A stretch of DNA of 64,000 nucleotides, taken from assembly GCA_964344635.1 (NCBI GenBank), contig CAYFOE010000002.1:34953-98952 (forward strand). The letters run 5' to 3'. Under the pieces are notes generated by a model. The model worked only from the letters and a program-made list of their open reading frames with translations, was not told the DNA's origin and made no database searches. This DNA comes from Candidatus Woesearchaeota archaeon (GTDB lineage Archaea > Nanobdellota > Nanobdellia > SCGC-AAA011-G17 > UBA489). Shown in pieces: positions 21,779-41,377 of the stretch. A program made the position numbers and the translations under genes. Each line of letters opens with the position of its first letter. Position 1 is the stretch's first letter.

Positions 21779-24700
21779 ATGGCAATAATTAAATCCATGA
21801 AGCTGAAGGGTTTCAAAAGTTTTGCAAAACAATTAGATTTGGAGTTTGGTCCGGGATTTAACTGCATTATTGGTCCGAATGGTTCTGGTAAGTCGAATGT
21901 TATGGATGCGTTGTGTTTTGTTTTGGGGAAGCTTTCTGCTAAGTCTATGAGGGCTGAAAAATCTTCAAACTTAATTTTTAATGGCGGTAAGAAGGGTTCG
22001 CCTCTAAGAGAAGCTGAGGTTTCTTTAACGTTTACAAATGATGATAATGAGTTTCCGATTGAGGCGAATGAAGTTAAACTTTCTAGGATTATTAAACAGA
22101 CTGGGAATTCTGTTTACAAGATTAATGATCAGGTTATGACGAGGCAACAGATTCTGGAGTTACTTGCAAGGGCTAAAATTGATCCGGATGGTCACAATAT
22201 TATTTTGCAGGGAGATATTGTTAGGTTTATGGAGATGAAGGCTGATCATAGGAGAGAGCTGATAGAAGACATTGCTGGAATTTCAATTTATGAGGATAAA
22301 AAGAACAAGGCAATGAATTCTTTGACCAAAGTTGAGGCTCAATTAAATGATGTAACAATTATTTTGAAGGAACGTGAAGCGTATCTAAAGGAGCTTAGGA
22401 AAGAAAAAGAGCAGGCAGAGAAATATAGGAAGCTTGAAAAGAATATTAAATCGAATAAGGCTACATTCTTGAATATTCAGATTAATGATAAGGAAAAGAA
22501 GTTAGAGGACATTGCAAGTAGGATTAAAAAACAAGAGGCTCAACTAAAGAAGTTTGAAGAGAATGAACAAAACATTAGGGAGAAAATCAAGATAAAGAAA
22601 GGTGAGTTAGAGGCGTTAAACCATGAAATTGAAGAAAAGGGGGAAAAAGACGCTATAACACTCCAAGAGGAAATTGAAAAACTAAAAACCGAGACGGCAA
22701 GAAATTCTGAGAGAATCTCTACTTGTAAATCTGAGATATCTAAGATAACTGAAAGAAAAAAACAATTAGAAGCTTCTTTGGAAGATACTAAAAAGACCAT
22801 TAATGGCTTGGAAGAAAGTAAGAATAAATTAACTGAGGAAGTTACAAAACTAAAGGAAAAAGAAACTAAGGAATCTTCTAGGATTAATCAGGTTAAATCT
22901 AGTTTGGGTCTTTCAGATAATACTGAGCTTGATTCACTGGAAACAACTTTGGACAAAAAGCTTGCAGAGTTTGAAGAATTACAATCTAAAAATCAAGAAC
23001 TTCTTCAAAAGAAATTTCAATTAGATGCTGAGTTAAGTAATTTGAATGAAAAAATAAATGCAATACAAGAATTGGAAAAGTCAACGGATTTGAAGAATGC
23101 TAAAAAGGAATTTGAAAGGGTATCTAAGGAATTAAATAAAAGGTTGAATGAGGATACTGTTCTTTCAACTCAGGTGAGGAAGGCTAAAGAGGAATATGCC
23201 TTACTGAATGAAAGGTTGTTTAAGATTCAAACTCAGAAGAGTAGTATGAAGGCTTCAGCCTCTTTTGATTTGGCAATTAAAAAAATTAAAGATCTAAAAA
23301 ATCCTAAGGTATTTGGGACTGTTAGTGAGCTGGGAGAGGTTGACAAAAAGTTCTCGTCTGCGTTGGAGGTTGCTGCAGGACCAAGGATAAGGTCTTTGGT
23401 GGTTCAGGATGATAGGGTTGCAGCAGAGTGTATTAAGACCTTGAAGGCCTCAAGAACAGGGACTGCGACATTCCTTCCTATGAATAAGATTAGGGGAAGG
23501 CCAGCTACTAGGATTAAGGGCACTGGGGTGTATGGTTCTGCAGTGGACTTGATTGATTTTGATCCCAGGTTCAAGGAAATTTTCTCTTATGTTTTTGCTA
23601 ACACTTTAGTTGTAGAGAATATTGAAACTGCGAGAAAAGTAGGTATTGGAAAAGTTAGGATGGTTACTCTTGAGGGAGATTTAGTTGAGGCTTCGGGGGC
23701 TATGATTGGAGGGTATAGGACTAAAAGAATTGGTTTGGGCTTCCAAGAAAAGAACCTTAACACAGATTTAGATAATCTAAGTAAAAAGATTGACAAGGCG
23801 AGTCAAACTAAAGAGGTAATTGAGGGTAGAAAGGTAGAGAATGAAAACAAGATTTCAGAATTAAGGAATAATAAATCTCATTTAGAGGCTGAGATAATTA
23901 AACATGAGAGGTCTACTTCTGGTTTAAACTCGATTGAATTAAAGAATAGAATCTCTAAGATAAAAGGCGATTCAACATACTCTGAATTTTCTAATTTAGG
24001 GAAAATAATGAATTCCTTAAACTTAGAAATACAGAAATTAAAAGCAGAAAAAGAAAAATTAAAGAAAACTTCTTCTGGTAATGAAGGACGGTCTCAATTA
24101 GAAGCTTTAGAAGGTAAAAGGTTGAAGACTAGGGAAGAGGTTGTGGAGAAGAATACGCAGATAAGAAATATTGAGATCCAGAAGCAAAATATTTACATTC
24201 CTGAAAAAGAAAAGATTCAGCAATTAATCAAGAATAGTGAAAAAGAATTGATAGATTTCAATGGGGAGTTCAAAACGCTTGGGAGTCTTCTTAAGGATCA
24301 AAGTTCAAGGTTAAATAAGAAGGAAGGGGAAAAGTCTAAGTTCCAAAAACTGTATAAGGATTTATTCTCTAAGAGAAACAAAATAAGTGAGGAGACTCAA
24401 AAACTCGAGGCTTCCATAATTCTTGAGGCTAATAAGGAAAAAACAGTTAATGAAAAGATTAACGAACTTTCTATTGGCAGGGCGAAGGTAACTGCTGAGA
24501 TTGAAGCCCTTAACGGTGAATTTGAAGAATTTGAAGGAATCTCGCTAAGGAGGGGTTTAACTCTTGATCAATTAAAGTTAGAAATAAAGAACTTTGAATC
24601 TATGTTGAGTAAGATAGGTAATGTTAACATGCGTGCATTGGAAGTTTATGAGGAAATCTTGAATGAATATGAAAAACTGATTGAGAAGAAGGACAAATTG

Positions 24701-25204
24701 AATTCTGAAAAGGAAGATGTTCATACAATGATTGATGAAATTGAAAAGAACAAAAAGACTATATTCATGAAAACTTTCAAAGAGTTAAATAAGAATTTTG
24801 CAAGGATTTTCCTTTCACTTTCTAGAAAGGGAGAAGCTAGTCTAGAATTAGAGAATAAGTTAGATCCTCTGAGTGAAGGTGTGGATATTAAGGTAAGAAT
24901 TACAGGTAATAGGTTCTTGGATATCAAGTCTCTTTCGGGTGGTGAAAAGACTATGGCTGCTTTAGCTTTCATTTTTGCAATTCAAGAATATCAACCTATG
25001 GCTTTCTATTTACTTGATGAAGTTGATGCTGCATTAGATAAAAGAAATTCAGAATTGTTATCAGAGTTGGTTTCAAAGTATTCTGGAACCGCTCAGTATA
25101 TCATGATTTCCCATAATGATAATGTTATCTCTGAAGCTGACTATGTTTATGGCGTGAGTATGCATGAGACTGGAATCTCGAAGGTAGTTAGTTTAAAATT
25201 ATGA
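21779..25204 (+). CDS. smc: chromosome segregation protein SMC
   Basis: Walker A GPNGSGKSN, long coiled coils, hinge (VFGTVSELGEVDKKFSSALEVAAGPRIRSLVVQDD), signature LSGGEKTMAALAFIFA and Walker B YLLDEVDAALD. 1141 aa. Confidence 0.85.
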   Translation: MAIIKSMKLKGFKSFAKQLDLEFGPGFNCIIGPNGSGKSNVMDALCFVLGKLSAKSMRAEKSSNLIFNGGKKGSPLREAEVSLTFTNDDNEFPIEANEVKLSRIIKQTGNSVYKINDQVMTRQQILELLARAKIDPDGHNIILQGDIVRFMEMKADHRRELIEDIAGISIYEDKKNKAMNSLTKVEAQLNDVTIILKEREAYLKELRKEKEQAEKYRKLEKNIKSNKATFLNIQINDKEKKLEDIASRIKKQEAQLKKFEENEQNIREKIKIKKGELEALNHEIEEKGEKDAITLQEEIEKLKTETARNSERISTCKSEISKITERKKQLEASLEDTKKTINGLEESKNKLTEEVTKLKEKETKESSRINQVKSSLGLSDNTELDSLETTLDKKLAEFEELQSKNQELLQKKFQLDAELSNLNEKINAIQELEKSTDLKNAKKEFERVSKELNKRLNEDTVLSTQVRKAKEEYALLNERLFKIQTQKSSMKASASFDLAIKKIKDLKNPKVFGTVSELGEVDKKFSSALEVAAGPRIRSLVVQDDRVAAECIKTLKASRTGTATFLPMNKIRGRPATRIKGTGVYGSAVDLIDFDPRFKEIFSYVFANTLVVENIETARKVGIGKVRMVTLEGDLVEASGAMIGGYRTKRIGLGFQEKNLNTDLDNLSKKIDKASQTKEVIEGRKVENENKISELRNNKSHLEAEIIKHERSTSGLNSIELKNRISKIKGDSTYSEFSNLGKIMNSLNLEIQKLKAEKEKLKKTSSGNEGRSQLEALEGKRLKTREEVVEKNTQIRNIEIQKQNIYIPEKEKIQQLIKNSEKELIDFNGEFKTLGSLLKDQSSRLNKKEGEKSKFQKLYKDLFSKRNKISEETQKLEASIILEANKEKTVNEKINELSIGRAKVTAEIEALNGEFEEFEGISLRRGLTLDQLKLEIKNFESMLSKIGNVNMRALEVYEEILNEYEKLIEKKDKLNSEKEDVHTMIDEIEKNKKTIFMKTFKELNKNFARIFLSLSRKGEASLELENKLDPLSEGVDIKVRITGNRFLDIKSLSGGEKTMAALAFIFAIQEYQPMAFYLLDEVDAALDKRNSELLSELVSKYSGTAQYIMISHNDNVISEADYVYGVSMHETGISKVVSLKL

Positions 25205-26260
25205 TTTTTTCTTAAGAATTACTTTATTTATTCCACGCATTTCTTTGTTGTAGATTAAGAAAGATACGACTAGCATAACTGCTATCAATAAGATCAATAG
25301 CTTGAATGTGTTTTCGCTCATCTTAAAGTCTTCTTCTATTCTGCTGGGTTTTTCTAAATGTGCTGCTTTAGAGTCTATGGTTATTACTGCTGAATCAACT
25401 AGGGTGATGCCTTTGTATCTTACTTCTACACCTACCACATATAGGCCGTTGCCTAAGCCTTGTGGTAAGGATAGAGTCTTGTCTAATTTTAAGGAGTCTT
25501 TCACTGTCAAAAACTGGGATGTCCTCATAATCTCCTGATTATATGAGTTCTTAACAATGTAAACTACTTCAACTCTGTCATTTGAGAATCCTTCCATGTT
25601 CAAAGAAACTAGTACATCTCCGCTCTCGATCATTGTAACAAATTGTTTTGGAAGATTTACACTTAATTTTCCTACTGCTTTGGAGGATCCAATATTCAAT
25701 ATTACAGGTACCAGTGATCTCAAACCTCCACCTGTTGCCGAGATATATCCGGTGAAAACTCCTGATTCAGTTCCGATAAATCTTACAATTACTGTCCCTT
25801 TTTCTCCTGGTTCAAGAATTATCCTTAAGGGTTCAAATTCTATGAGGTCTTTCAAGGTCGTTCCAAATGAAAATTCAACTGTATTAGGCGCAGTATTTTC
25901 TATCATTAGTTCTTCAGAGGCACTTCCTCCTTTTAACAGGTCTATTTCAAATCTATCATTTCCTCCGATACCTACCTTGCTTCCGGATTTAAATAATGCT
26001 ACAGAAGGTGCTGCTTCTTCAACTGCAGCGGCTGCAGCGGCTGCTTCTTCTGCTTCAGGTCTTTCGATAATAGTAATATTCATACTTCCGGTCGCATCTC
26101 CGGTTATGTATGATCTTTCTATTTCTTTCTCCCCAATTCTTTCAAGGATATTTGAAGAGCCAATTAAGACTACAACGACTAATGTCAACAAGAGCAATGA
26201 AACTGTATTGATCTTTCTATTAAATTCCGCGGCAGTAAGTTTGAATTTGTTTTTTGCCAT
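25199..26260 (-). CDS. membrane-anchored surface protein (N-terminal signal-anchor, C-terminal TM), last gene of the surface operon
   Basis: LLLLTLVVVVLIGSS near the N-terminus, an EAEEAAAAAAAVEEAAPS linker, and C-terminal LLILLIAVMLVVSFLIY followed by a basic tail. Confidence 0.4.
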   Translation of the reverse strand: MAKNKFKLTAAEFNRKINTVSLLLLTLVVVVLIGSSNILERIGEKEIERSYITGDATGSMNITIIERPEAEEAAAAAAAVEEAAPSVALFKSGSKVGIGGNDRFEIDLLKGGSASEELMIENTAPNTVEFSFGTTLKDLIEFEPLRIILEPGEKGTVIVRFIGTESGVFTGYISATGGGLRSLVPVILNIGSSKAVGKLSVNLPKQFVTMIESGDVLVSLNMEGFSNDRVEVVYIVKNSYNQEIMRTSQFLTVKDSLKLDKTLSLPQGLGNGLYVVGVEVRYKGITLVDSAVITIDSKAAHLEKPSRIEEDFKMSENTFKLLILLIAVMLVVSFLIYNKEMRGINKVILKKKS

Positions 26261-26261
26261 A

Positions 26262-26666
26262 TTAAACTCTTAGATAAACTAAGGATAATTTACCAGTATA
26301 ATAGCCCATTTCATAATTTTCAGGAATTTTTAATGAGAGGACTAGTGTTTTTTTCTCGCCTGCAGGCAGATAAAATCCATTATCGCTTATATCGATATTC
26401 TCTATACCGAATAAGTATGCATTAACAATAACGTCTTCATCGGAAATAATTTCTATTTCTCTTTCAAAAACCATGTTTTCACTAATTGTCCCAAAATGGA
26501 TTGCGTCTTCATCTAAGTTTATTCCCATATATTCTCCATGAACATAATCAATGGGGTAAGATGCATAACCTGCAATGTTTATTTTTACGTAAAGCAACAA
26601 ACCTAAAATCACCAAAACTAAAAAAGAAACTAGGAATATTGCTAGATTCTTATGCTGTTTCTTCAT
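26262..26666 (-). CDS. small signal-anchored extracellular protein
   Basis: N-terminal TM segment IFLVSFLVLVILGLLLYV. 134 aa. Start-stop overlap with the upstream gene. Confidence 0.35.
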   Translation of the reverse strand: MKKQHKNLAIFLVSFLVLVILGLLLYVKINIAGYASYPIDYVHGEYMGINLDEDAIHFGTISENMVFEREIEIISDEDVIVNAYLFGIENIDISDNGFYLPAGEKKTLVLSLKIPENYEMGYYTGKLSLVYLRV

Positions 26667-27847
26667 TTTCCTAGTTTCTCCTGTAAATCGCTCATCTTAT
26701 CGTTAAATTTGGGTTTTTCACTAGCGTGCTTCATATGTCTCAACCAAAGAATATTTGCTATAATCAAGAAGATTACAAGTAAGGCTATACCTACCACATT
26801 CCAGTTTACACTGAACTTGTCAACAACTTCAAAGGCTACTCTTTCTTCTTCAAATGAATTGGGAAGACGAGTTATCATTACTAGAGTATACTCTCCAACA
26901 GGAACATTTGTAACATCCAAAAATACAGATACATCGCCCTTACCTAAGGGTTTCAGCATAATACTGTTTGAAACAGATCTCTCTGTGTAAGGCACTCCAT
27001 TTTTTTCTAAAAATACTTCTAAATAAATATCGTCAAACTTATTGTTCCACATATTTTCTAATGAAAATACTACTTTTCTAATTCCTCCAACAAGAACTTC
27101 ATTTGTAAAGTTTATTATGTCTACATCTTCGTAACCTACTGTGAAAGAAACATTTTGATGTTCTGTCATCAGTCCATCATAGTCTATGAAAGAATCTGCT
27201 ACAAATTTACCTTTTCCAAAAACAGAACTATTTATAACAATCGATCTTGTAAGAGATTTTCCAGCAATCAAAGAGCTTGCCTTGTATTCCTCTCTAAAGA
27301 TTTCTTCAGTTAAATCTTCGGTATAGATAATTAGATTGGGCTTAACTCCAAAGATGTTTTCATCTCCTCTGTTTGCAATGCCAAAATTAAAACTTATGTT
27401 TTCTCCATCGTTTACACTTTCTACTTTGAGGTCATATTCAACGTATCTTTTAGGATAAGGCACGCTTACTACAACTCTAGAGACTACACTTAATGATGCA
27501 GTAATCCCTTCTTGAGGTTTTACAATCCGGTTAACCCTTAAATCATGAGTTATCCTTCCAGATTGTTCAAATTTCCCCGGGAAAGTATAATAGACTGTGT
27601 ATAGTGCGGAGTCTCCAGATTTGATTTCTTGAATCCCTCCTTCTATTTCAAAATATTTTTCAAGAGGACCGCTTATACTTAGCGAAGCATTAACATCTTC
27701 TTCGGATGTCCCGATTAAACGAATTTCAAAACTACCGCTCCCATAAGGTTCAAAATCTAAAAAGGTATCACTGGGAGCTATTCCAATTCCCATGACTGGC
27801 AATGAAAATAAGACCAAAAAAAATAGATAAACTATACCTCTTTTCAT
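26663..27847 (-). CDS. surface protein with signal peptide and C-terminal TM anchor (CARDB-like beta-sandwich repeats, tentative); paralog of 28781..29983
   Basis: Signal peptide MKRGIVYLFFLVLFSLPVMGIGIAPS. The shared motif SVVSRVVVSVPYPKRYVEYDLKV corresponds to LTTQLILEVPYSEKYIEPELFIV in the paralog. C-terminal VVGIALLVIFLIIANILW. Confidence 0.45.
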   Translation of the reverse strand: MKRGIVYLFFLVLFSLPVMGIGIAPSDTFLDFEPYGSGSFEIRLIGTSEEDVNASLSISGPLEKYFEIEGGIQEIKSGDSALYTVYYTFPGKFEQSGRITHDLRVNRIVKPQEGITASLSVVSRVVVSVPYPKRYVEYDLKVESVNDGENISFNFGIANRGDENIFGVKPNLIIYTEDLTEEIFREEYKASSLIAGKSLTRSIVINSSVFGKGKFVADSFIDYDGLMTEHQNVSFTVGYEDVDIINFTNEVLVGGIRKVVFSLENMWNNKFDDIYLEVFLEKNGVPYTERSVSNSIMLKPLGKGDVSVFLDVTNVPVGEYTLVMITRLPNSFEEERVAFEVVDKFSVNWNVVGIALLVIFLIIANILWLRHMKHASEKPKFNDKMSDLQEKLGK

Positions 27848-27882
27848 ATTATTCTAAACTTAAAAGAAGTTTATAAGTTTAC

Positions 27883-28548
27883 CTAACTACCTAACGATAT
27901 TGCAGTAAATTGTATGTGGTCGTTACCTGTTCCGTTTACTGTGCTGTTTAATGTTAACAAGATTGAAACATTAATCTCGTCTGTGAATGCGCTGCTGTTT
28001 GCATAAGACATGTTAGGACAAACAATTTTTTCATAAGTTTGTAGGTCTTGTGCAATTAATGCGTAAGCCATTTTATCTTCTGCTGCACCACCACCAACAT
28101 AATCAAAGCAAGAGGAATTGGTCCATTCATTGTGGCTTGTATTCTCTAGCCTGTATTGGTAGCTTGGAATTGCAGTACTGAATAGGTCGTTAGCATCTTG
28201 TGTACTGTTCACTGAAAGATTGACATAAACATTTCCGTCATTTCTTAACCAGAAAGATGTTGGACTACTAAACCCGTTAGGATTATCATTAGGTTCTGTG
28301 GTATTAATCAGGGTACTTCCTGCTGCATTTATGTATCCTGTTCCGAAATTAACATTGCTGTTCAACAACGCCATGGATACAGTGGTTGAAACTGTAACAT
28401 TGACAGTTCCATGAGTTTCATTTATGATAGATAAACCTACAATTCCGCCAACACCACCAGTTACGGATAAAACTGTAATTATAGATCCTAAAACTGCTAC
28501 AAAGGCTAAAATTCCTGTAATAACTAATGTTCTATCATCAACTCTCAC
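27883..28548 (-). CDS. secreted or anchored Asn/Ser/Thr-rich protein with many N-glycosylation sequons
   Basis: N-terminal hydrophobic segment LVITGILAFVAVLGSIITVLSV, multiple N-x-S/T sites. GTG start. Confidence 0.3.
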   Translation of the reverse strand: MRVDDRTLVITGILAFVAVLGSIITVLSVTGGVGGIVGLSIINETHGTVNVTVSTTVSMALLNSNVNFGTGYINAAGSTLINTTEPNDNPNGFSSPTSFWLRNDGNVYVNLSVNSTQDANDLFSTAIPSYQYRLENTSHNEWTNSSCFDYVGGGAAEDKMAYALIAQDLQTYEKIVCPNMSYANSSAFTDEINVSILLTLNSTVNGTGNDHIQFTAISLGS

Positions 28549-28765
28549 TTACATCATCTCCTGTGGACTCAGGTAAAACTTTGATACTTAACTTAGCCCC
28601 TTCTTCATTTTCGTAAAGCTCAGCATCATAAGAATTGTTAGGTGTCTCTTCAACCGAATCGACAACTGACCAGGTGATCAGTAAACTAACAAAAATAATT
28701 ATAATAAATAAAGCTAATAACAATTCTCTTTTAACACCTGTCTTTTTTGCTTTCGCCACACCCAA
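28538..28765 (-). CDS. small single-TM protein with an acidic tail
   Basis: LLLALFIIIIFVSLLITW followed by an acidic C-terminus. TTG start, uncertain. Confidence 0.2.
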   Translation of the reverse strand: MGVAKAKKTGVKRELLLALFIIIIFVSLLITWSVVDSVEETPNNSYDAELYENEEGAKLSIKVLPESTGDDVSES

Positions 28766-28780
28766 TAACCCTCCTTTGTC

Positions 28781-29983
28781 CTATTTAAATATTTTGCTAC
28801 TGTCCTTGCCATGCATTTTCATCCTATGGTGCCATACCATCCAGATTAAATTAATGATTAACAACGCTCCAAGCCCAATTAAAATTTTGATTAATAAACT
28901 GTGTTTCTTTTTTACAAATTCACTTCTTTCAAAGTTGATTTCTATTTTTTCGTTGAATATTTCGGTTTCAAATTCTCTCTCTATTTGTGAGCTTCCATAA
29001 TAAACTGACAATCTTGTGATATATTCGGATTCATTAAACTCTCCTAGGTTGATATGGCCATTTAAAACCACATCCTCTCCGTTTGCTAGATTTACTCTTG
29101 AGGTTTCAAATGAGCCAACGAGATTGTTATGTTTATCATAGACTTGGACTTCGGCATAGACTCTTTCTAAGTCTGCATCTTGAATGTTTCTTAGTTCAAT
29201 TTCAAAGCTTGCAACTCCTTCAACTAGATTCTTAGCATAAAAATCTTCTAGAACAATTTTTGGTCCGATTACTTCAAATTCTCCGCTAAGAGTTTTTACT
29301 ATGTCTTCATAACTAACAATCAATTCTGCAGAATAAGTTCCTAATTCTCCTTCGTTATCCCACAAGAAGTTAACTTCTCTATTTTTTTCAAGGCCTACAT
29401 AAGAAATACTTTTATTCATCCTAACTTCGCTATCATCATTACTAATCACTAATTCGACACCTAAGTTCTCAACAATTTCTGAGCCTTTGTTCTTGAGAGA
29501 AACTAAGAATTTTGTACTTTCTCCTACACCTCCTTCGACAATGAACAGTTCAGGTTCAATGTATTTTTCACTGTAGGGCACTTCTAAGATTAACTGAGTT
29601 GTTAAGGAAACGCTTGCACTAACTTTATTTTCTTCGATACCGTTTAATTCTTTAACAATAAGGTTTATTTCGTTTCTGCCTTCAACCATGCCTTGAGGAT
29701 ATCCTTCTGGCAAATTCAAAAAGTACCTTATACTTTTTTCGGACAATTCTTTAACATTAAATGAGGTTTCTTCAAAATTTACGTAAGTTGCCATTGCTCC
29801 AGTTTTGCCTAAAACAATATTGATTGGCCTATTTTCGGTGTTTACAACTTTGAAACTGCCTTCAAAGTTTAGGCCCGGTTCGTAACTTATTATCTTTTTT
29901 GCAGGAGTAATTCCTAAACCTAAAACTAATGATGAACTCAAAATAAATAAAATACAAATTCCGAAGATTAATTTAAACTTCAT
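28781..29983 (-). CDS. surface protein with signal peptide and C-terminal TM anchor; paralog of 26663..27847. Its ATG overlaps the stop of the giant gene (ATGA).
   Basis: Signal peptide MKFKLIFGICILFILSSSLVLGLGITPA, C-terminal LLIKILIGLGALLIINLIWMVW. Confidence 0.45.
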   Translation of the reverse strand: MKFKLIFGICILFILSSSLVLGLGITPAKKIISYEPGLNFEGSFKVVNTENRPINIVLGKTGAMATYVNFEETSFNVKELSEKSIRYFLNLPEGYPQGMVEGRNEINLIVKELNGIEENKVSASVSLTTQLILEVPYSEKYIEPELFIVEGGVGESTKFLVSLKNKGSEIVENLGVELVISNDDSEVRMNKSISYVGLEKNREVNFLWDNEGELGTYSAELIVSYEDIVKTLSGEFEVIGPKIVLEDFYAKNLVEGVASFEIELRNIQDADLERVYAEVQVYDKHNNLVGSFETSRVNLANGEDVVLNGHINLGEFNESEYITRLSVYYGSSQIEREFETEIFNEKIEINFERSEFVKKKHSLLIKILIGLGALLIINLIWMVWHHRMKMHGKDSSKIFK

Positions 29984-32900
29984 CCTCCTCCAACCTCACC
30001 ATACCATGTAGTTAATTCTAAAACCATTCCTTTTGCACCAACTATTTCTTCATCTGGTACTGAAATATTAAAGTCTATTCTGGCTTCGTCGGATGCATCA
30101 TCCTTGCTAAGGTTATTGATGAATTTCTCATCAGCACCTGATGCGGGCATTATCCTATAGGTTATGTTTGAATCTGCTGCATCAAATGATGTGCCTTCTG
30201 TTCCGTCTCCAACTTTAACTGAGAAATAATCTATGCTATGTGGGAGACTCTGGGTTGTCCAGAATGCAACACTTGGGCCTGTAATGTTCACGTCTGCATC
30301 AACATTTCCTGAGTTTTCAATCCATATTGGACAAGGGGTGGGCGTCTGGGTTGCTAGATCGCATCCTGAGGTCTCTGACCTAACTCCTAGGCCTAATAAG
30401 CCGAAGTCAACAACTTGGTCTAAAATGTCCAATGCCACATATACGCTAAGGTTGTAATAAAATGTGTCTGGAACATTTTCTTCTGTAACGTATGGGTCTG
30501 AGGTTTTTACTGTCCATTCATAGTATCTGTTGTCATCATAGAAGTAGATTAAGTCTGTTGGCAACGTAAAGGTACAGTTGTCTTCGTTATCTAAGTATCC
30601 GTTGGCGTTAGCATCACAATTGGTTGAGTTCTCCTCAACAGTGTAAGTTCTTGCATCGTCGCATGATCCTCCACCGACTAAGAAGCAACTAATATTGATG
30701 TCATAATCTACTTGGTCTTGGTCTGGGTCTGAAGTTCTGTCTTGGCAGAAGAATTCTCCTTCTGAGACACATGAAGAGTTCCCTACTGCTGGCAATCTTG
30801 CAAATTCATTTGCAGGTGTCCAATTGAAAGTTGGCGTCCTATTTGTGTGAGTTGTTGTGTTTATTGGTGTGTTCAAGATTGCAGTTCCCGGCTCATAATT
30901 TTCAATGAATATGTAATCTGAGTCTACTTGGTCTGAAACACTGGATCTACTGTCAGTTGCTGTTACGTTACAGCTGTAATTTTCAAAATGATTGTACGTA
31001 AATGCAGACAAGTTATCTGTATATGGGTACCCTGATGGAATACCTGTTGGAGAGTTGGTTGCAAACAGAGTGGTTTGATTATAGTATTTGATTGTCAGGT
31101 CTACTGTCCCATCCACATCATCTGTTGCTGTAAAGGTGCAGTTAATTCCTGTAGTCCTATTAACGCCTGTAGGGCCTATTGATAGGTCACTAATTTCTGG
31201 TTTCCTATCTACTGTGAACATCCAGGACTCGCTTTCATTTAAAAGGTCTGAGATAGATTCTTCATCATCGTGATCGTAGGCTTCTATAAACCAGGAATGG
31301 TCTCCTGCTTTTAACCTGTACATGTCTAGAACTTCTGAGGCATTTAAACTTTTGTTTAGTATTGCAAATTCGTCTATTGATCCGTTGAAAGGATACGCAG
31401 CAGTATCGAAATCATTCCTTCCTGTCCCAATATAAACATCCCCAATATTATTTTCTGTGAAAGGCACAAAAGTATAAGATGTATTAAAAATACCATTCCG
31501 GTAAACTGAAACTTGATCACTTTCATTAAAACTAACTACAATATGTGTCCAAGTGTCTATCTCGAAAGCTCCATCCAGTATGGTTGTGGTTGTCCCAAGT
31601 TTTAATCTCAATTCATCACTAACCATCCTAATTGCAAACCCATTTGAGGAAGCCCTTTTATCAAATATTCCTCGAGTATTCCCTATAAAACGAGGTTTAA
31701 CCCAGAATGCATAAGAAATATTATTATTACGCATCCAATCATCTTGGTCCCCAAAGTTCACCCTGCTAGTATCTGAGGTTGCTTTTGAAAAAAACGTTCC
31801 TCCTAATTTTCCACCAGATTTATTTATTCTTGCATTACTTTCAATAGTCCCATTTTGTACCCCATCAGCATCTGCAAAATCAAATACTCTGGTACTGTTC
31901 TCCCCATATTTTGTATTATTGTCAAAATGAGCTAATAACAAGTAATTCCCATCTGGGACTAGAACCGGAGCTGTCCAATTATATGTTAAGTCTGTGTTGT
32001 TTTGCCAGCTTTGATTTTGGTATAACATGTCAGAATAAGCAACATCCGATTTGGATTGACCACTTGAGCCATAAATTGTTACAAATGTTAATGAGTCAGT
32101 GGAATCGTATACTGTTGAGTTCAGTAAGATTTCTCCTGTATCTGTAAAGTTAGTAGTATTAGCTGGAGCGTTTAATGTTATTTTTGGGGCTGTGTTGCTT
32201 AGTATTCCTAGTCCGAAATTAAACAGCTCAGAATTATTGACTAACTCGCTGTCATCTCCTGAGGCATTCCAGTAGTGTGTTGCACTGGTTAATTTTAAAG
32301 TGTCATTTATTTCTGAGCCAGTTAGGGTCCTATTAATTAGAATGACATCATCTAGTCCCCCATCCCAAGGAACTGGATTTCCTCCACCTGTTGAGGCTCC
32401 TGCTGCTAGCCTGTGTGAAAGTATTGCTGCAGTGTACATTGCCTGAGCATTTTCATAGGTGTCGATTACTATTCCATTTTTATAGAGAGTATAACTCCCA
32501 TTTTTATACTTAGTTAATGCTACATGGTTCCATTCTCCTGCGGTATCAAAGAATCCTGCCGTGTCTGTATTTTTTTCAGCTGCACCATTTCCTTGAATAA
32601 CTGTTATCGCACCACTTTTCTGTCCTATAAACCACCCTACATATTTTCCTGGAGCTAAAGTTGGATCGTAAACCCCTTGAGATGCAATAAATCCATTTTG
32701 GGAAAGATCATTAGATTTAACCCATCCCATCCAGGTTAGATTCCAACCATGTTGAATTTCAGTATAACCAGTACCTAAGTGTAACCAGTCTCCAGTCCCA
32801 TCAAACTCATAATGGCCACCAAATACATCGTTTGAGAAATTAACTACGGCATTTCCTGCTGGTGTTCCATTTTTATTTCCCGCCCAGTCTAAAACTAGAT

Positions 32901-35900
32901 TTGGAGTTTCTCCTACACCTAAGACTTCATCAAAATGGAATCCATATTGAGTATCTGCTACTATATCAAATGGGTATTTACTCCAATTATAAGTTATTTG
33001 GGTTCCATTACTCACGTTAAATTTATACAATAGATCATGTAACGAAGGATTTGCATTACTTGCACCATATATGCTTAATGTAACGTTATCTACTGGTAAC
33101 AAATCATCCTCAACTCTAACTTGTAGTTCTACACCTGCAGTTCCTGCATCAAAGTGAGAGTTATTTACAGGGCTTTCGAGAGTTACATTTGAGACTTCAT
33201 TGGGATCAGTAATGTGATCAAACTCTAAATACTTTTCCGTTAAGCCATCTTCATTGATAACTTTCAGATCAAATGTGTCATTCATACCGACCATGTCTGT
33301 TAAATAAGCTTTGTAATACCCTTCAGAATCAATAATTGGGAAGGTTGCAACTAGGCTAGTGGTGTTGGCTACATAAACCTCTACACGAGTATTTGCTCCT
33401 TGTACATTCCTAACATAAATTTTAACATGATGGTTTGCTGTTAGATTTTGTATGAATTCTGCTCTTATAATTTCTGTGTGGTTGATGAATTCTGTCCAGT
33501 TTCCATCTAGATATCTTGATTCATTATACACATCTGAAATAAATGAATAGTTTTCATCTAGGTGTTGTGCTGCTGAAATATTGATTTCTCCAAATCCTGG
33601 GTCGTTAGGGTAGAGTGTGATGTTGTATTCTTCTCCAGGTGTTAGTCCTGTTTTCAATAATTTCCAGGAACCACCACAGGATTGTTCGGTGTAATTCCAT
33701 TCTTGACATTTATACAAGGTATCTGCAGTTGCAACAACAGTCACAGTGGCATTAGTGAAGTTTTCTGTTTTTGGATTGATTGCATAGGTTTTTTGGAATT
33801 CTTCAAGTTCGAAAGATTCATCTAGATCGACTAACTGATTAATTGGGCTTGCAACGTTATAATCATCAAATATTACTTGCTTAATTTTTCCACTTGAAGG
33901 TTTATAGATAATATCGTACATTCCTGGAACAACACTTAGATTATGTACGGTTCCATTCCTGCCATATATTAAATCTCCAGTGTCAGATTTAACTTCTAGG
34001 AATACGTTTACTAATACTCCTCTTCCGTCTTCAACTGATTCCATAACAGTGACATTGAATCCGTTTTCGAAAATAGGGTCTTCTATTAGGTCCCATTCTA
34101 AATATGCATCATCAATCAAATTTTTGTTCATGACTTTGAGGTTAAATTCGTTCGAACTTCCGTTAAATCCGTCTAGATTCAAGGAATAATATCCTTCTCC
34201 TATGATTAATGAAGAGTCCATGATTTTATTTTTCAAATCACTAGTATAGATTTCGAATAGGTTCTTTGATTCTTGTACATTTCTTAGATACATTCCGATA
34301 GAGTTTTCTCCAGTTAAATTTCCTTCAAAAACAACTCTCAAGTATTCTCCATGGTGTATCTTGCTTCCATAAACTCCATCTTGAGCAATGGTTGTAGCTT
34401 CTAAATTTGAAATGTATCTATCTGTTTTATCTCTGTGTTCTACAGTAACAGAACTAATCAATAATTCATAGGTTTCGTTTCCTAAAACTGGAACTATCCA
34501 TTCAATGTAATCAATTTTTCCATCTTCGTTGGTGTCATGTCCGGTAAAATTGATCTTAACTCTTTTAGTATCATTTTTGCCTTGTAAATTAAACAGGTAA
34601 ATATCCTTTAAATCACTCTCCGGAATATTCGCAAATGAAAGAACGTCTTTATATTCTACAACTGAGCCTAGGATTATTTTCATTCCATTATTTAGTGTTT
34701 CAATTTGGATTGTGGGTGCAGGCGTTTCATATTCTACGATGATTTCATCGACTTTATCATTAACTAAGATAGTATCATTAACCTGTTCCTTTAAACTATC
34801 TGCAACTGCCATTCCAGTTATTGCGTTTCCGGTAATTCTGTTTACTAATTGGTCGATGAAGGAGTCGGATCCAACACCTAACTCGATAATTGTCCCATTG
34901 CCTTCGTCTAATTCTGCTGATTCAATTTCTCCTTGCCTGCCGTTTAGTATTTTCTTTAAAGAGATGTTTCCTGCTTCTTCGGGCATGTCAAATTCGACAT
35001 TGCTTTGTTCACTGCCTAAAACAATTTTTTTCTTCCATTGGACTGGCTCACCTATTACTGCGCCATATTGTATAACTTCTTCAGTATAACTTCCTTTATC
35101 TACAACGTCTCCAGCTTCTTCCTCACTAGAGGTATTGGATTTTGAGGAATCATTGTCTTCAAAATCATCTTCGATAATTAAAACATTAAACCCGTCAGAA
35201 TCTCTCAACTCAATTGAATAATTAGCTCCCTCCAAGGGCCCATATCCTATTTCTAAGGATTCTAAACCTAAAACTGAATCTTGGATATAAAATTTGATAA
35301 TGTATTCTCTTCCGATTGCATTTCTTAATCTGCAGGCGTCTTCACAAACATTTTCAAATTCTTCAATAGTATGATTGCTAATATTCAATGATTCTAAATA
35401 GTCTTTCAATAAATCTTCTTTAACTTCTTCTTCGACAATTTCGATTTCTTCTTCTACGTCTTCAACATCTTCTTTCTTAATTTCAAATACTCCCTCAGCA
35501 AAAGCTACAATTTCATTTGTCAAATTAATAGTGTAGTTTTCTGAAATATTGATATCTAATAAGTATTCCCAGTTGGTTAAACAAATTCCGTATTCAAAGT
35601 CCCACAGACTGCAACCGTATAGGTATTCTCCTTCGGCAGTTGAACTCAGTGTTAGGTTGGATTCATTAAATTTGGAGAAATTGAGGCCTGAAAAGTCGAA
35701 TCCGAATACTTTTTCAAAACTAATGTTTACTGGTTCGATTAATCCTCTTGCAGAATACTCTTCGTAGGCTAACCAACCACCTTTTTCAGGATATTTAATT
35801 TCTAAAAAATCTCCTAATCCTAGAATAAAACTTTCATTAGTTGAATTAAGATAGTTGTAAATTACGTTTTCTCCTCTAGAATTCAAAACTCCAAAATCTT

Positions 35901-36657
35901 CTAAGAGATTTCCAATTTCCTTATAGTTTAGAGGCTCTATGGCTTCTTCTTCAAAAATGACGTTTCCTGTGATGCTTGGGGCTTCAAAATCTTCTTCGGT
36001 TTCACTTTCATAAACTAGGTAAGTGTCTCCCGAGTTAATATCTGATAAAAACACTTTTGCGGAACCGTCATCTAATGAAACAAACTCTCCGCTAACTTTC
36101 AAACTGTCTAGTCTCTCAATTCCTGAGACGGTTAGTGTATATTCTTGGCTTACATCAATAATTGATTTGAGGTTATGCTCGCCGTAAAGGGTTTCTTTTT
36201 TGTCAAAGAATATTGCGTCGCCTGTGATTTTATTTCCTCCTAAAACTGCATTTCCGGTTAAATGGTTTCCTCCTTCAGAGAATACGTTGAAGTCTACTGC
36301 AAATCCGCTGATAGCTCCTGAGTCACTTACAATTCCTATGATTCCTCCAAAGAACATGAATCCTGCAAGCATTACAACTAATACGAAAGATAGGAATATT
36401 CTGTCATGAAATTTTATTTGGTCATGTCGACTTAATTTGTGAACTCTTCGAGGGTTCAAGGATTTCTTGAGGGTTGCACTACTTCTTTTTTCAACGTCTT
36501 TGGACGTTTCTTGTTTAAGAATTTTTAGTTTAGCTTTTGCTTTTTTCAAGTCGCTGCCAAGATAAACGGATTTCACTTTACCGTCTTTCATCCTTACACT
36601 GTCATAGTAGTAAGGTCCAGATTTCTTACCTTTCTTTGTAATGTATTTTTTATACAA
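29980..36657 (-). CDS. giant (about 2225-aa) type-II-anchored surface protein with multiple LamG (ConA-like lectin) domains and many N-glycosylation sequons; candidate adhesin
   Basis: Cytoplasmic basic N-terminus (KKGKKSGPYYYDSVRMKDGKVKSVYLG), then a TM segment IFLSFVLVVMLAGFMFFGGIIGIV. LamG patterns include GGHYEFDGTGDWLHLG...WVKS, and KLGGTFFSKATSDTSRVNFGD...ISYAFWVKP...FAIRM. The tabulated start is a TTG (36657); the first ATG is at 36591. Confidence 0.6.
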   Translation of the reverse strand: MYKKYITKKGKKSGPYYYDSVRMKDGKVKSVYLGSDLKKAKAKLKILKQETSKDVEKRSSATLKKSLNPRRVHKLSRHDQIKFHDRIFLSFVLVVMLAGFMFFGGIIGIVSDSGAISGFAVDFNVFSEGGNHLTGNAVLGGNKITGDAIFFDKKETLYGEHNLKSIIDVSQEYTLTVSGIERLDSLKVSGEFVSLDDGSAKVFLSDINSGDTYLVYESETEEDFEAPSITGNVIFEEEAIEPLNYKEIGNLLEDFGVLNSRGENVIYNYLNSTNESFILGLGDFLEIKYPEKGGWLAYEEYSARGLIEPVNISFEKVFGFDFSGLNFSKFNESNLTLSSTAEGEYLYGCSLWDFEYGICLTNWEYLLDINISENYTINLTNEIVAFAEGVFEIKKEDVEDVEEEIEIVEEEVKEDLLKDYLESLNISNHTIEEFENVCEDACRLRNAIGREYIIKFYIQDSVLGLESLEIGYGPLEGANYSIELRDSDGFNVLIIEDDFEDNDSSKSNTSSEEEAGDVVDKGSYTEEVIQYGAVIGEPVQWKKKIVLGSEQSNVEFDMPEEAGNISLKKILNGRQGEIESAELDEGNGTIIELGVGSDSFIDQLVNRITGNAITGMAVADSLKEQVNDTILVNDKVDEIIVEYETPAPTIQIETLNNGMKIILGSVVEYKDVLSFANIPESDLKDIYLFNLQGKNDTKRVKINFTGHDTNEDGKIDYIEWIVPVLGNETYELLISSVTVEHRDKTDRYISNLEATTIAQDGVYGSKIHHGEYLRVVFEGNLTGENSIGMYLRNVQESKNLFEIYTSDLKNKIMDSSLIIGEGYYSLNLDGFNGSSNEFNLKVMNKNLIDDAYLEWDLIEDPIFENGFNVTVMESVEDGRGVLVNVFLEVKSDTGDLIYGRNGTVHNLSVVPGMYDIIYKPSSGKIKQVIFDDYNVASPINQLVDLDESFELEEFQKTYAINPKTENFTNATVTVVATADTLYKCQEWNYTEQSCGGSWKLLKTGLTPGEEYNITLYPNDPGFGEINISAAQHLDENYSFISDVYNESRYLDGNWTEFINHTEIIRAEFIQNLTANHHVKIYVRNVQGANTRVEVYVANTTSLVATFPIIDSEGYYKAYLTDMVGMNDTFDLKVINEDGLTEKYLEFDHITDPNEVSNVTLESPVNNSHFDAGTAGVELQVRVEDDLLPVDNVTLSIYGASNANPSLHDLLYKFNVSNGTQITYNWSKYPFDIVADTQYGFHFDEVLGVGETPNLVLDWAGNKNGTPAGNAVVNFSNDVFGGHYEFDGTGDWLHLGTGYTEIQHGWNLTWMGWVKSNDLSQNGFIASQGVYDPTLAPGKYVGWFIGQKSGAITVIQGNGAAEKNTDTAGFFDTAGEWNHVALTKYKNGSYTLYKNGIVIDTYENAQAMYTAAILSHRLAAGASTGGGNPVPWDGGLDDVILINRTLTGSEINDTLKLTSATHYWNASGDDSELVNNSELFNFGLGILSNTAPKITLNAPANTTNFTDTGEILLNSTVYDSTDSLTFVTIYGSSGQSKSDVAYSDMLYQNQSWQNNTDLTYNWTAPVLVPDGNYLLLAHFDNNTKYGENSTRVFDFADADGVQNGTIESNARINKSGGKLGGTFFSKATSDTSRVNFGDQDDWMRNNNISYAFWVKPRFIGNTRGIFDKRASSNGFAIRMVSDELRLKLGTTTTILDGAFEIDTWTHIVVSFNESDQVSVYRNGIFNTSYTFVPFTENNIGDVYIGTGRNDFDTAAYPFNGSIDEFAILNKSLNASEVLDMYRLKAGDHSWFIEAYDHDDEESISDLLNESESWMFTVDRKPEISDLSIGPTGVNRTTGINCTFTATDDVDGTVDLTIKYYNQTTLFATNSPTGIPSGYPYTDNLSAFTYNHFENYSCNVTATDSRSSVSDQVDSDYIFIENYEPGTAILNTPINTTTHTNRTPTFNWTPANEFARLPAVGNSSCVSEGEFFCQDRTSDPDQDQVDYDINISCFLVGGGSCDDARTYTVEENSTNCDANANGYLDNEDNCTFTLPTDLIYFYDDNRYYEWTVKTSDPYVTEENVPDTFYYNLSVYVALDILDQVVDFGLLGLGVRSETSGCDLATQTPTPCPIWIENSGNVDADVNITGPSVAFWTTQSLPHSIDYFSVKVGDGTEGTSFDAADSNITYRIMPASGADEKFINNLSKDDASDEARIDFNISVPDEEIVGAKGMVLELTTWYGEVGGG

Positions 36658-40481: not shown

Positions 40482-40871
40482 CTATTCCTCAAATTCTTTC
40501 TTAAAGGTGGAGGCTATGTCTATTACATACTTTCCGTCTGATAATTTATAGACTAATGGTTCACCCTTGAACAGGTCAACTAAATCTATTTCAAAATGGC
40601 CTGGCTTCAAAACACGGATAGATTCCAGATCTAAAACGACTGGCAAATCTTTTGAAACTTCGGTCTCAGTCTTATCTCCGACTAATTCCATAGCATCTTT
40701 TTCAATCTGCTTTTTATCGTTATCAGTTAATTTGGTTGTAAGTTTTTTTGCTTCCTCAACTGACTTTTCCTTCATAAAAAAGAAAAATCTTCCGCCACAA
40801 CTACATCCAGTGAGAACTTCTCTAGATCCATCCTCGTATAATTTAGAACATCTAACACATTGGTGAGGCAT
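40482..40871 (-). CDS. zinc-ribbon protein (archaeal DUF2072-like), third gene of the GTPase triad
   Basis: MPHQCVRCSKLYEDGSREVLTGCSCGG. 129 aa. Its ATG abuts the stop of the upstream gene. Confidence 0.4.
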   Translation of the reverse strand: MPHQCVRCSKLYEDGSREVLTGCSCGGRFFFFMKEKSVEEAKKLTTKLTDNDKKQIEKDAMELVGDKTETEVSKDLPVVLDLESIRVLKPGHFEIDLVDLFKGEPLVYKLSDGKYVIDIASTFKKEFEE

Positions 40872-41366: not shown

Positions 41367-41377
41367 CTTATCACCTC

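Follow-up and report, generated by a model that had tools for sequence, protein, structure and literature searches.

The window, that is, the entire 64,000-nucleotide stretch of DNA that was analysed, contains at 25199-36657 of its minus strand seven intact and tightly packed open reading frames, G1 to G7, each of which encodes a protein with a hydrophobic anchor (ORF calls and hydropathy; topology was assigned from hydropathy and AlphaFold helices). The junctions from G1 to G7 measure, in order, -4, +15, -11, +35, -4 and +1 nt; the start-stop overlap of G1 and G2 is an ATGA at 29980-29983. The 3' end of the operon is convergent with an SMC gene (21779-25204, plus strand), and the other neighbors are a phosphatase and housekeeping genes. 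In Pfam and NCBIfam searches none of the seven genes matched an ATPase, a peptidase or a secretion domain, and the operon neither contains nor adjoins genes for glycoside hydrolases, transporters or sugar metabolism. The preliminary description of this DNA had recognized a minus-strand unit of seven genes with overlapping or abutting codons, whose products are all extracytoplasmic and co-oriented and include no ATPase or secretion component; the coordinates, the junctions with the ATGA, the anchor in each protein and the domain searches all agree with this.

G1 (29980..36657, like all features below on the minus strand; 2225 aa, TTG start) is a giant surface protein that begins with an N-terminal module and a transmembrane (TM) segment, continues as a variable ectodomain containing two LamG domains, and carries at its C-terminus a domain that we call X. 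Its orthologs in the same operon position have 1793-2626 aa; their middle part diverges fast, and their length is strongly variable. The Lys-rich N-terminal module (36556..36657, residues 1-34, MYKKYITKKGKKSGPYYYDSVRMKDGKVKSVYLG) is 73% identical between orthologs. A phmmer search with this module (E<1e-3) retrieved at least 154 representative proteins or protein clusters, where it always occupies the extreme N-terminus, and each of the 57 matches of at least 600 aa has a TM inside the first 400 residues. The sequence evidence shows the module to be a leader that many giant archaeal surface proteins share; it had been singled out earlier as an unusual trait of G1, and it is real, but not peculiar to this protein.

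The single hydrophobic segment of G1 (36319..36411, residues 83-113, by hydropathy) represents a signal anchor or else the h-region of a long leader. It is followed by the TG-containing motifs HLTGNA and KITGDA, and 52% of the N-module proteins vs 12% of the background have a post-TM [ST]G[FYLM] motif (p about 2e-19). A more distant homolog, from locus L018, has an ordinary cleavable signal peptide in place of the N-module and TM. The type-II anchoring that had been ascribed to G1 is uncertain in view of this homolog and of the conserved [ST]G[FYL] motif behind the TM, which suggests that the N-terminal part may be cleaved off as a leader. Should the N-terminal TM of the DPANN giant stay uncleaved, C-terminal docking of the kind discussed below would be unneeded for its attachment.

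The Pfam family Laminin_G_3 (PF13385) is matched by two stretches of G1 at 108.8 bits (gathering cut-off 27.6, E 3.6e-31), and is also detected in the G1 orthologs. The first LamG (ConA-like) domain lies at 32368..32865 (approximate limits, about residues 1265-1430) and includes the HYEFDGTGDW motif at residue 1282; the second, with the best Laminin_G_3 stretch, lies at 31330..31770 (residues 1630-1776). LamG/ConA-like domains bind carbohydrates. Pfam finds no protease or nuclease domains in G1. The view of G1 as a LamG giant with dozens of N-x-S/T sequons can be kept, given 86 sequons vs 27 expected from composition, but the "several" LamG domains come down to two in Pfam. Giant surface proteins occur in DPANN archaea generally, and G1 is similar to them in being very large, LamG-containing, extracellular and glycosylated, and in belonging to a small-genome, presumably partner-dependent archaeon. 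It differs in being part of a fixed operon with a short protein that shares one of its domains and with dedicated anchors; its defined N-terminal module and its C-terminal X domain, common to many other giants, are further differences.

The short protein is G4 (27883..28548; 221 aa, GTG start), for which a pilin-like fold is predicted. A hydrophobic leader at its N-terminus precedes a conserved extension that resembles a β-strand (about residues 42-58); the X domain covers 51-220. The protein has 26 homologs of 211-233 aa, with the conserved motifs F-x-LRNDGN and VCPNMSY. Profile comparison indicates that G4 and the last ~150 residues of G1 (30007..30456, residues 2068-2217) share homologous domain X: hhalign aligns the G4 profile with the C-terminus of G1 over 143 columns (probability 93.7%, E 1.8e-7), and when the same profile is scanned along the whole of G1, it gives a single match (E 8.5e-6; the next best is 0.45 and a reversed control 0.19). 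Reciprocal X-domain HMM matches were obtained in the window and in loci L012, L014, L018, L020 and L021, and the G4 HMM matches the C-termini of the long proteins of L018 and L021 at 1e-9 and 3e-11. The domain is thus laid out as a docking domain would be, making up the whole of mature G4 and the extreme C-terminus of G1. The long X protein of L018 (58% GC, labelled Methanosarcinales), which has the cleavable signal peptide and no other anchor, argues that there X must attach the protein to the cell.

The AF2 model of G4 (pLDDT 74) has as its best Foldseek matches in the PDB almost exclusively donor-strand fibre subunits, with probability up to 0.98; these are TLP-1a (9ikj), the Saci_0406 thread (7pnb), CS20, CfaB, FimA, the Hyper2/CanA cannulae, CsuE and PapE. 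The scores are weak (E 5e-3 to 0.1, TM-scores 0.3-0.55), and no sequence similarity to solved pilins was found. The extension at about 42-58 (GTVNVTVSTTV in G4) is conserved, with the family pattern GYVNVTVxxxVAVTLV, alternates hydrophobic and polar residues, and is unstructured in AF2. The X domain of G1 aligns from G4 residue 51 on, so that most of the putative donor segment is kept in cis.

G2 (28781..29983, 400 aa) lies next to G1, and G5 (26663..27847, 394 aa) next to G4; in both, a signal peptide precedes three Ig-like domains, and a TM lies at the C-terminus. In the AF2 model of G5 (pLDDT 79) the Ig-like domains span residues 23-130, 135-237 and 242-342, and the TM 349-375. They are paralogs with a common VPYxxxY motif (BLASTP 8e-12, hhalign 4e-40), as the preliminary description had already stated, giving the motif as VPYxxxYxE and noting the signal peptide and the C-terminal TM. 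Together with, more distantly, G7, they are Ig-like arrays with a C-terminal TM that resemble WxLIP. In the WxL/Csc clusters of Lactobacillales and Bacillales, which comprise CscA (WxLIP), CscB (short WxL protein), CscC (long WxL protein) and CscD, WxLIP is built of a signal peptide, DUF916 (PGBD), DUF3324 (HBD), and a C-terminal TM helix. The combined G2 and G5 ectodomain profile aligns with the WxLIP ectodomain collinearly over both WxLIP domains (hhalign probability 89%, E 2.2e-6), whereas a control, a different membrane protein with multiple Ig domains from this genome, gives E 0.24; G5 alone or G7 alone, with the TM removed, is insignificant. The G5 model finds WxLIP in Foldseek (9i25_C and 9i1y, E 4e-10), with generic Ig arrays of the hydin/CFAP type scoring higher (E 1e-14). 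In Pfam, WxLIP_HBD is matched by 3 of the 15 members of the G2/G5 family (best 4e-6) and WxLIP_PGBD by one (0.011), CARDB being equally frequent. A disordered hairpin loop (residues 111-120, nt 27488-27517, pLDDT<50) lies in the first Ig domain of G5, the domain that hhalign aligns with the WxLIP PGBD.

G7 (25199..26260, 353 aa) is bounded by an N-terminal and a C-terminal TM, between which lie an ITGxA motif, an Ala/Glu linker and two Ig-like domains. Its ectodomain aligns with that of G2/G5 over 195 columns (hhalign probability 77%, E 2.1e-5), and it is a distant paralog of G2/G5 domains 1-2. In the HMM search of related loci it is restricted to the closer Woesearchaeota. G6 (26262..26666, 134 aa), which has a TM at its N-terminus and a single Ig-like domain with a DAIHFGT motif, is kept in every related locus, including the distant L018-L022, and has weak hhalign similarity to G7 and to the first domain of WxLIP. 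G3 (28538..28765, 75 aa) has one N-terminal TM and a short acidic extracellular tail; its orthologs (72-80 aa) are conserved, with HMM matches in L012-L014, L019 and L021, and it is absent from L018 by the same search.

The same gene order is observed in more than ten related archaeal loci. In L004-L014, all seven genes have same-length, same-order orthologs with 22-70% identity, which shows that these are intact rather than degraded genes. The core, i.e., a long X protein, an anchor, one or two short X proteins, another anchor, and G6, is kept in distant loci, and its fixed order and the strict co-occurrence of its parts persist at 22-40% identity and into the 58%-GC lineage. In L022 the core is split into two divergent halves, which supports the existence of two X-anchor pairs. 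The related module is present also in MAGs labelled Methanosarcinales (L018 and L021), a lineage generally not seen as episymbiotic. Sequons divide the operon along the same lines: only G1 and G4 (12 sequons vs 5 expected) exceed expectation, 2.5-2.8-fold and in all orthologs, and G2, G3, G6 and G7 are depleted. G4 is the most sequon-dense component and is among the best conserved. The enrichment marks G1 and G4 as the putative exposed parts, and the pattern fits an exposed cargo (G1, G4) vs a membrane-proximal machinery.

We propose, at about an even chance of being right, that the operon encodes a non-covalent surface-display complex that follows the logic of WxL/Csc clusters with an archaeal docking domain. 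The gene order would read as an X protein, an anchor and a small TM protein, twice over (G1-G2-G3 and G4-G5-G6), plus G7. G1 and G4 would be exported by Sec and heavily N-glycosylated; X, a β-sandwich of ~150 residues, would be held at the membrane by G2, G5 and perhaps G7 and G6, and the Ig-array proteins would stay in the membrane via their TM helices. Docking would most likely be β-strand complementation of an incomplete sandwich, with the strand donated by the anchor hairpin, as in the WxLIP-WxL prediction, and/or by the N-terminal extension of G4. The LamG lectin domains would be presented outward, for glycans of a partner cell or of a substrate. The "co-expressed structural surface module" of the preliminary description was right about a tight, conserved unit and missed the domain shared by G4 and G1 and the related Ig-array anchors G2, G5 and G7; with the shared X domain and the WxLIP-like anchors, it would become a specific docking or assembly system.

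Peptidoglycan is the proposed WxL ligand, and Archaea do not have it. In the WxL/Csc clusters, the short protein consists of a signal peptide and the shared domain, which in the long protein is always C-terminal and comes after variable domains, often ConA-like or β-helix; these clusters also encode a partner of the Ig-Ig-TM type and a tiny protein that is anchored (PMC1534035, PMC9772566, PMC10599100). The operon has in common with them that every product is secreted or anchored, that an ATPase is lacking, that the short protein adds to its leader a docking domain of ~160-190 aa, that the long protein combines variable adhesin domains with the same domain at the extreme C-terminus, that tiny extra anchored proteins are present, and that short-domain genes number one or two per cluster; their Ig-like partner with a C-terminal TM has profile and fold similarity to G2/G5. 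β-Strand insertion, which we propose here, is predicted there as well, WxLIP donating a strand from an unstructured PGBD hairpin loop (PMC10599100). In contrast, X could not be related to WxL by sequence and has no dual W-x-L motif: there is no Pfam WxL match in G1, G4 or 21 members of the G4 family (E up to 10), and hhalign with eight authentic WxL domains (L023-L027) gives probabilities of 0.1-0.2%. The operon also differs in its archaeal host, in the number of Ig domains (three) and of paralogous anchors (two to three, vs one WxLIP), in the absence of a sortase and peptidoglycan, and in a long protein of up to 2600 aa with heavy N-glycosylation signatures and, in DPANN, a special N-terminal module. 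None of the seven proteins has an LPxTG motif or Gram-positive anchor, the 75-aa G3 being found instead.

A possible but less probable explanation is that the operon builds a pilus or fibre by Sec-dependent export and donor-strand complementation, as in archaeal threads, TasA/bundling pili, Tafi or chaperone-usher pili. G4 would then be the polymerizing major subunit whose N-terminal strand inserts into the next one, G1 a tip adhesin of the FimH type in which a C-terminal, strand-accepting pilin domain comes after the lectin domains, and G2, G5 and G7 membrane anchors or an assembly platform. The Foldseek list of G4 favors it, as do the sequon density and conservation of G4, comparable to those of glycosylated thread pilins, and the alternating extension, which behaves like the TLP-1 donor strand, also predicted to be disordered by AF2 (PMC11494351). 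Archaeal donor-strand fibres (Saci_0406 threads, AbpA, Tafi, CanA) likewise have a glycosylated, Sec-exported small β-sandwich subunit, both properties being predicted for G4, with an N-terminal strand-like extension, and are the first matches of the G4 model; they too have no ATPase, and Tafi has a LamG-bearing minor subunit, TafC (PMC11821415), and Ig-like membrane proteins proposed as anchors (TafF). The fold scores are, however, weak, and no operon protein belongs to the TasA, TafA or TafE families (Pfam, NCBIfam) or to the sequence families of the other fibres just named. The NCBIfam match of G1 to TafC (residues 1688-1786) reaches only 30.8 bits vs a cut-off of 410 and covers the LamG part only, so that membership in Tafi was rejected; moreover, the pilin-like domain of G1 is C-terminal and G1 is 5-7 times larger than TafC. 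A TafD/SipW-type signal peptidase is lacking, and Pfam and NCBIfam found no peptidase S24/S26, usher or PapD in G1-G7. The layout of G1, with lectin domains ahead of a C-terminal pilin-like domain that would accept a strand, recalls chaperone-usher tip adhesins (FimH, PapG), and CfaB, FimA, PapE and CsuE are among the G4 fold matches, but the similarity is weak, and an outer membrane, an usher and a PapD-type chaperone are all lacking in this archaeon with a single membrane. The two or three WxLIP-like anchors set the operon apart from the archaeal fibres. The donor segment retained in cis in G1 argues against the fibre too, and two anchor paralogs, each with its own X protein, agree better with 1:1 docking than with one common fibre base. 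A type IV pilus-like system was discarded, as neither the operon nor its immediate neighbors have an ATPase or platform domain and inspection of the leaders found no [KR][GA]-hydrophobic prepilin site; nor is there an RR motif of a twin-arginine signal at the N-termini of G1 and G4.

It is improbable that the seven are independent, merely co-transcribed envelope proteins, S-layer-associated or pseudo-periplasmic, with no specific docking, X and the Ig arrays being common building blocks of archaeal surface proteins. Ig-like and CARDB-like domains with a C-terminal TM are indeed common in archaeal envelopes, the S-layer-like neighbor U4 (38885-40192) follows the same overall plan, with weak similarity to G2/G5, and docking between the products is something we infer. 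Against this stand the fixed core order and co-occurrence at low identity, the anchorless long X protein of L018, the complementary partitioning of sequons, and the overlapping start and stop codons. As to function, capture of polysaccharides or other glycans for nutrition, instead of host attachment, is compatible with either architecture and seems to us rather unlikely. It agrees with carbohydrate binding by LamG/ConA-like domains and with the occurrence of a related module in MAGs labelled Methanosarcinales, and the Csc clusters of Lactobacillus, which are under catabolite control and include CscC proteins with ConA-like domains, were first proposed to serve polysaccharide use (PMC1534035). 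The gene neighborhood, however, offers SMC, phosphatase and housekeeping genes rather than enzymes or transporters for sugars, and the variable length and fast-diverging middle of G1 are typical of partner-recognition proteins. Host attachment by G1 is a reasonable guess. The display complex based on β-strand complementation, possibly extended into a short fibre, would represent in Archaea a surface-display arrangement that has been described until now mainly in Gram-positive bacteria.

The preliminary description of a seven-gene run on the minus strand, at 25199-36657, is borne out by the ORF coordinates. All seven minus-strand ORFs are intact: G1 (29980-36657), which starts with TTG and encodes the giant LamG protein of 2225 aa, G2 (28781-29983, 400 aa), G3 (28538-28765, 75 aa), G4 (27883-28548, 221 aa), G5 (26663-27847, 394 aa), G6 (26262-26666, 134 aa) and G7 (25199-26260, 353 aa). 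The gene junctions from G1 to G7 measure -4, +15, -11, +35, -4 and +1 nt. Upstream of the G1 start, a TATA-like, AT-rich stretch is seen by eye, as is a GAGGG motif, and the SMC gene (21779-25204, plus strand) converges tail-to-tail on the 3' end of the operon. Membrane topology was derived from hydropathy, and every product has at least one strong hydrophobic segment in the position where it had been placed. The giant was thought to carry several laminin G domains; such domains are present, but they are two in number (Pfam Laminin_G_3, E 3.6e-31, two stretches). In Pfam searches with all seven proteins, Laminin_G_3 was found in G1 alone, and CARDB scored below threshold in G2 and G5; Pfam and NCBIfam together gave nothing beyond LamG and weak matches to CARDB and TafC, and neither database holds a curated family for G2-G7.

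The host of the operon is a DPANN archaeon; the G+C content of the window is ~35%, the homologs come from sources named Candidatus Woesearchaeota and Nanoarchaeota, and nearby genes include those for SMC and the origin-associated proteins OapB and OapC. Related loci were found via contigs encoding G4 homologs at 35-70% identity. Comparison with these relatives, which had been proposed, recovered the same seven genes, identically ordered and of near-equal lengths, in L004/L005, L006, L007/L008, L009, L010 and L011, and the same is true of L012-L014; the convergence with SMC is also kept in the related loci. Size variation among orthologs is confined to the giant (1793-2626 aa), and in pairwise comparison with the window proteins, G2 orthologs are 22-33% identical and identity in G4 reaches up to 36-70%. 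Such conservation of genes, order and lengths indicates that the genes are under selection and not decaying; gene degradation was ruled out, as the orthologs are equal in length and have no stop codons. In L006, a 156-aa transmembrane protein (8056-8526) is encoded between the giant and G2, and G6 and G7 are separated by a thioredoxin gene (12337-12657) of opposite orientation, so that the operon tolerates insertions at these two junctions.

Several features of the neighborhood deserve mention. Just upstream of the giant, a gene similar to PhoD and purple acid phosphatases (36735-38341, minus strand) consists of two overlapping ORFs of 199 and 371 aa in different frames, while its ortholog in L005 is a single 509-aa gene; the frame changes between ~37871 and 37751 (tblastn), and the same split is seen in the independent assembly L001. 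The split could reflect a pseudogene, a genuine frameshift or a sequencing error common to both assemblies. A GGDEF (diguanylate cyclase) protein is encoded at 18218-19009 on the plus strand (Pfam E 2.7e-23) and is conserved at 19589-20386 of L011; few archaea are known to carry genes for c-di-GMP signalling. The SMC orthologs beside the operon in L006 (13870-18930) and L007 (8122-13182), 1686 aa long, contain an intein (Intein_splicing and LAGLIDADG), which is absent from SMC of the window (1141 aa). A tRNA-Met gene (19053-19128) overlaps the listed GTG start of a dihydrouridine synthase ORF (19074-20054, plus strand), the true start of which is probably further downstream. OapC, OapB and a GTPase are encoded at 40482-42163 on the minus strand, ~4 kb upstream of the operon and beside tRNA-Trp, and a replication origin may be close.

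The giant and the small G4 protein share a domain, called X here. When the G4 profile (A1, 21 G4 homologs) was compared with the giant by hhalign, the last ~150 residues of the latter matched with probability 93.7% (E 1.8e-7, 143 columns), G4 residues 51-220 being aligned with G1 residues 2068-2217. The full-length giant alignment gave a single hit to the same profile (E 8.5e-6, next best 0.45), and the reversed-sequence control gave E 0.19. Reciprocal HMM searches concur in several loci: the HMM of the G1 C-terminus matches G4 ORFs, and the G4 HMM matches the C-termini of the long proteins in L018 (1e-9) and L021 (3e-11). G4 is essentially X preceded by three elements: a hydrophobic leader, then a hinge rich in Gly (GGVGGLTGFA), and a conserved strand with an alternating pattern (GYVNVTVxxxVAVTLV). 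In the AlphaFold2 model made from A1, X is a β-sandwich (mean pLDDT 74), the leader is helical, and residues ~30-58 are unstructured. Foldseek found no strong match to this model in PDB (best E 5e-3), and the top of the list is mostly made of donor-strand fibre subunits, i.e., TLP-1a (9ikj), the Sulfolobus thread protein Saci_0406 (7pnb), CS20, CfaB, FimA, PapE, CsuE and the Hyper2/CanA cannulae. TLP-1a forms an environmental donor-strand-exchange fibril, and its N-terminal strand is predicted by AF2 to be disordered (PMC11494351). The G4 profile found no similar protein among PDB sequences, the 21 family members had no match in Pfam, hhalign detected no relation of G4 to G2, G5, G6 or G7, and BLASTP comparison of the giant with itself revealed no significant internal repeats.

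G2 and G5 are paralogs (BLASTP 8e-12; hhalign 4e-40). The AF2 model of G5 (pLDDT 79) consists of three Ig-like sandwiches (residues 23-130, 135-237 and 242-342) followed by a transmembrane helix (349-375), and the first Ig domain has a single disordered hairpin at residues 111-120. The alignment behind this model is shallow because few homologs were retrieved: in the word-indexed search G2 found itself alone, and the G2+G5 profile found only 7 proteins. The best Foldseek matches of the model are generic Ig arrays (hydin/CFAP proteins), and the list also holds the Enterococcus faecium WxLIP, the membrane-anchored Ig partner in the WxL/Csc surface-protein clusters of Firmicutes, both by itself and in complex with a long WxL protein (9i1y, 9i25; E ~4e-10). 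Within the G2/G5 family, Pfam detected the WxLIP_HBD domain in 3/15 members (best 4e-6), WxLIP_PGBD in 1/15 and CARDB in 6/15. Against reference profiles from authentic clusters on plasmids of Bacillus, Listeria, Levilactobacillus and Enterococcus, the G2+G5 ectodomain profile, from which transmembrane segments and signal peptides had been removed, was collinear with both WxLIP domains (probability 89%, E 2.2e-6, 185 columns). The reversed control gave E 0.11, and the neighboring multi-Ig, S-layer-like protein U4 gave E 0.24; with control scores this weak, the similarity to WxLIP is more specific than "Ig-like", though still modest. G5 alone and G7 alone scored below significance against WxLIP, and the G2/G5 profile had no match among PDB sequences. 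G7 aligns through its two Ig domains with domains 1-2 of G2/G5 (probability 77%, E 2.1e-5), and G6 is a transmembrane helix with one Ig-like domain. U4 itself (38885-40192, minus strand, 435 aa) has a signal peptide, NEW3/CARDB-like Ig domains, a C-terminal transmembrane segment and a sub-threshold NCBIfam match to "putative S-layer protein" (PACE-CTERM-PROT, 1.4e-19); it is also found upstream of the giant in L004, L005, L008, L009 and L010, and is weakly similar to G2/G5 (probability 73%), though not to WxLIP.

More distant loci, two labelled Methanosarcinales (L018 and L021) and two Woesearchaeota (L020 and L022), retain a common core: a long X protein, an anchor, sometimes G3, one or two short X proteins, another anchor, and G6. 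L022 has the two halves of this core transcribed divergently, so that the unit looks like two X-anchor pairs, and this fits the order G1-G2-G3, G4-G5-G6, G7 in the window. L018, the one distant locus for which composition was measured, has a G+C content of 58%. Its long protein (726 aa) begins with a cleavable signal peptide of the ordinary kind (…PQAHA|A) and lacks a transmembrane segment; judging by this architecture, X would be the only plausible means of retaining it at the cell.

The Lys-rich residues 1-34 of G1 are the best-conserved part of the protein (73% identity). Exhaustive phmmer searches found this module in at least 154 representative proteins or clusters at E<1e-3, always at the extreme N-terminus of proteins as long as 4246 aa. 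A transmembrane segment is found within the first 400 residues in 57/57 module proteins of at least 600 aa, and at least 21/57 of these end with X. The motif [ST]G[FYLM…] directly follows the transmembrane segment in 52% of cases, compared to 12% of background windows (p ~2e-19), and also occurs in G4 (LTGFA) and G7 (ITGDA). From these sequence patterns we infer that module, transmembrane segment and motif may act as a common leader or as a processing signal, perhaps removed by cleavage; with a cleaved leader, the DPANN giants and the L018 version with its signal peptide would no longer be at odds. Beyond a weak match to DUF6788 (E 0.024), the module has no matches in Pfam or PDB, and it may be a leader dedicated to giant surface proteins. 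One module giant, P0088 (3467 aa), inspected by eye, combines an otherwise extracellular architecture rich in LamG and β-helix domains with a long hydrophobic, multi-pass region at its middle and a divergent, X-like C-terminus.

In all orthologs, N-glycosylation sequons are sharply partitioned among the products. Their density is 3.5 per 100 aa in G1 and 5.4 in G4, 2.5-2.8 times the expectation from composition; they are depleted in G2, G3, G6 and G7 (0.27-0.62 of expectation) and neutral in G5. By this measure, the X-domain proteins G1 and G4 appear to be the exposed parts, and the other products membrane-proximal.

In WxL/Csc clusters, the short protein is a signal peptide with a WxL domain, the long protein varies in its N-terminal adhesin domains (ConA-like lectin or β-helix) and in all cases has WxL at the C-terminus, WxLIP has two Ig-like domains and a C-terminal transmembrane segment, and there is also a very small anchored protein (PMC1534035, PMC9772566, PMC10599100). 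According to AlphaFold prediction, the WxL sandwich is completed by a strand formed from an unstructured hairpin of WxLIP (PMC10599100). All of these parts have counterparts in the archaeal operon: G1 corresponds to the long protein, G4 to the short one, G2 and G5 (and perhaps G7) to WxLIP, and G3 and G6 to the small anchored proteins. X, however, shows no relation to eight real WxL domains (probability 0.1-0.2%) and lacks W-x-L motifs; we therefore do not class the operon as a WxL cluster, and describe it as one that may work in a similar way. We found no paper in which DPANN archaea are linked to donor-strand fibres or to clusters of the WxL type.

We give an even chance to the best-supported reading, namely that the operon encodes a strand-complementation display complex, in which membrane-anchored Ig arrays would hold the X domains of the giant LamG adhesin and of its small companion G4. 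The main rival, conceivable if doubtful, is a thread-like fibre of polymerised G4 that has the giant at its tip, in the manner of FimH; the matches of the G4 fold to donor-strand subunits and its strand-like extension point in this direction, while the fold scores are weak, no assembly or processing gene is found in the operon, and the anchors come in pairs. Docking and fibre models share a physical principle, and both could be partly true, for example in a short stalk. That the genes are merely co-transcribed and their products otherwise unrelated envelope proteins is very unlikely, being hard to square with the conserved co-occurrence of the genes. The ligand may belong to a host cell or be a free glycan. 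Type IV pili were rejected (no ATPase, no prepilin leader), and so was archaeosortase-type sorting (no PGF/PEF C-terminal signal).

A bolder and rather unlikely reading is an unrecognised archaeal adhesion organelle, in which G4, polymerised by donor-strand exchange, would build a glycosylated stalk, the giant would be a LamG cap attached via the pilin-like domain at its C-terminus, and the membrane roots would be WxLIP-like proteins, with module, transmembrane segment and [ST]G[FYL] motif as a new export or processing signal of DPANN giants. If so, Gram-positive WxL clusters and archaeal strand-exchange fibres would belong to one ancient, ATPase-free display family of single-membrane cells.

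DPANN archaea are believed to need physical contact with partner cells, and to our knowledge little is established about the molecular parts of this contact. The operon offers a concrete, conserved and testable list of such parts: a giant lectin protein that is exposed, a small pilin-like companion with the same docking domain, and dedicated membrane anchors. If strand-complementation docking is real, it would extend the display principle of Gram-positive WxL clusters and pili to archaea, and would account for the fastening of giant adhesins where there is neither a cell wall nor an ATPase. The module and the X domain recur in many giants, and thus provide handles for finding adhesins across uncultured archaea.
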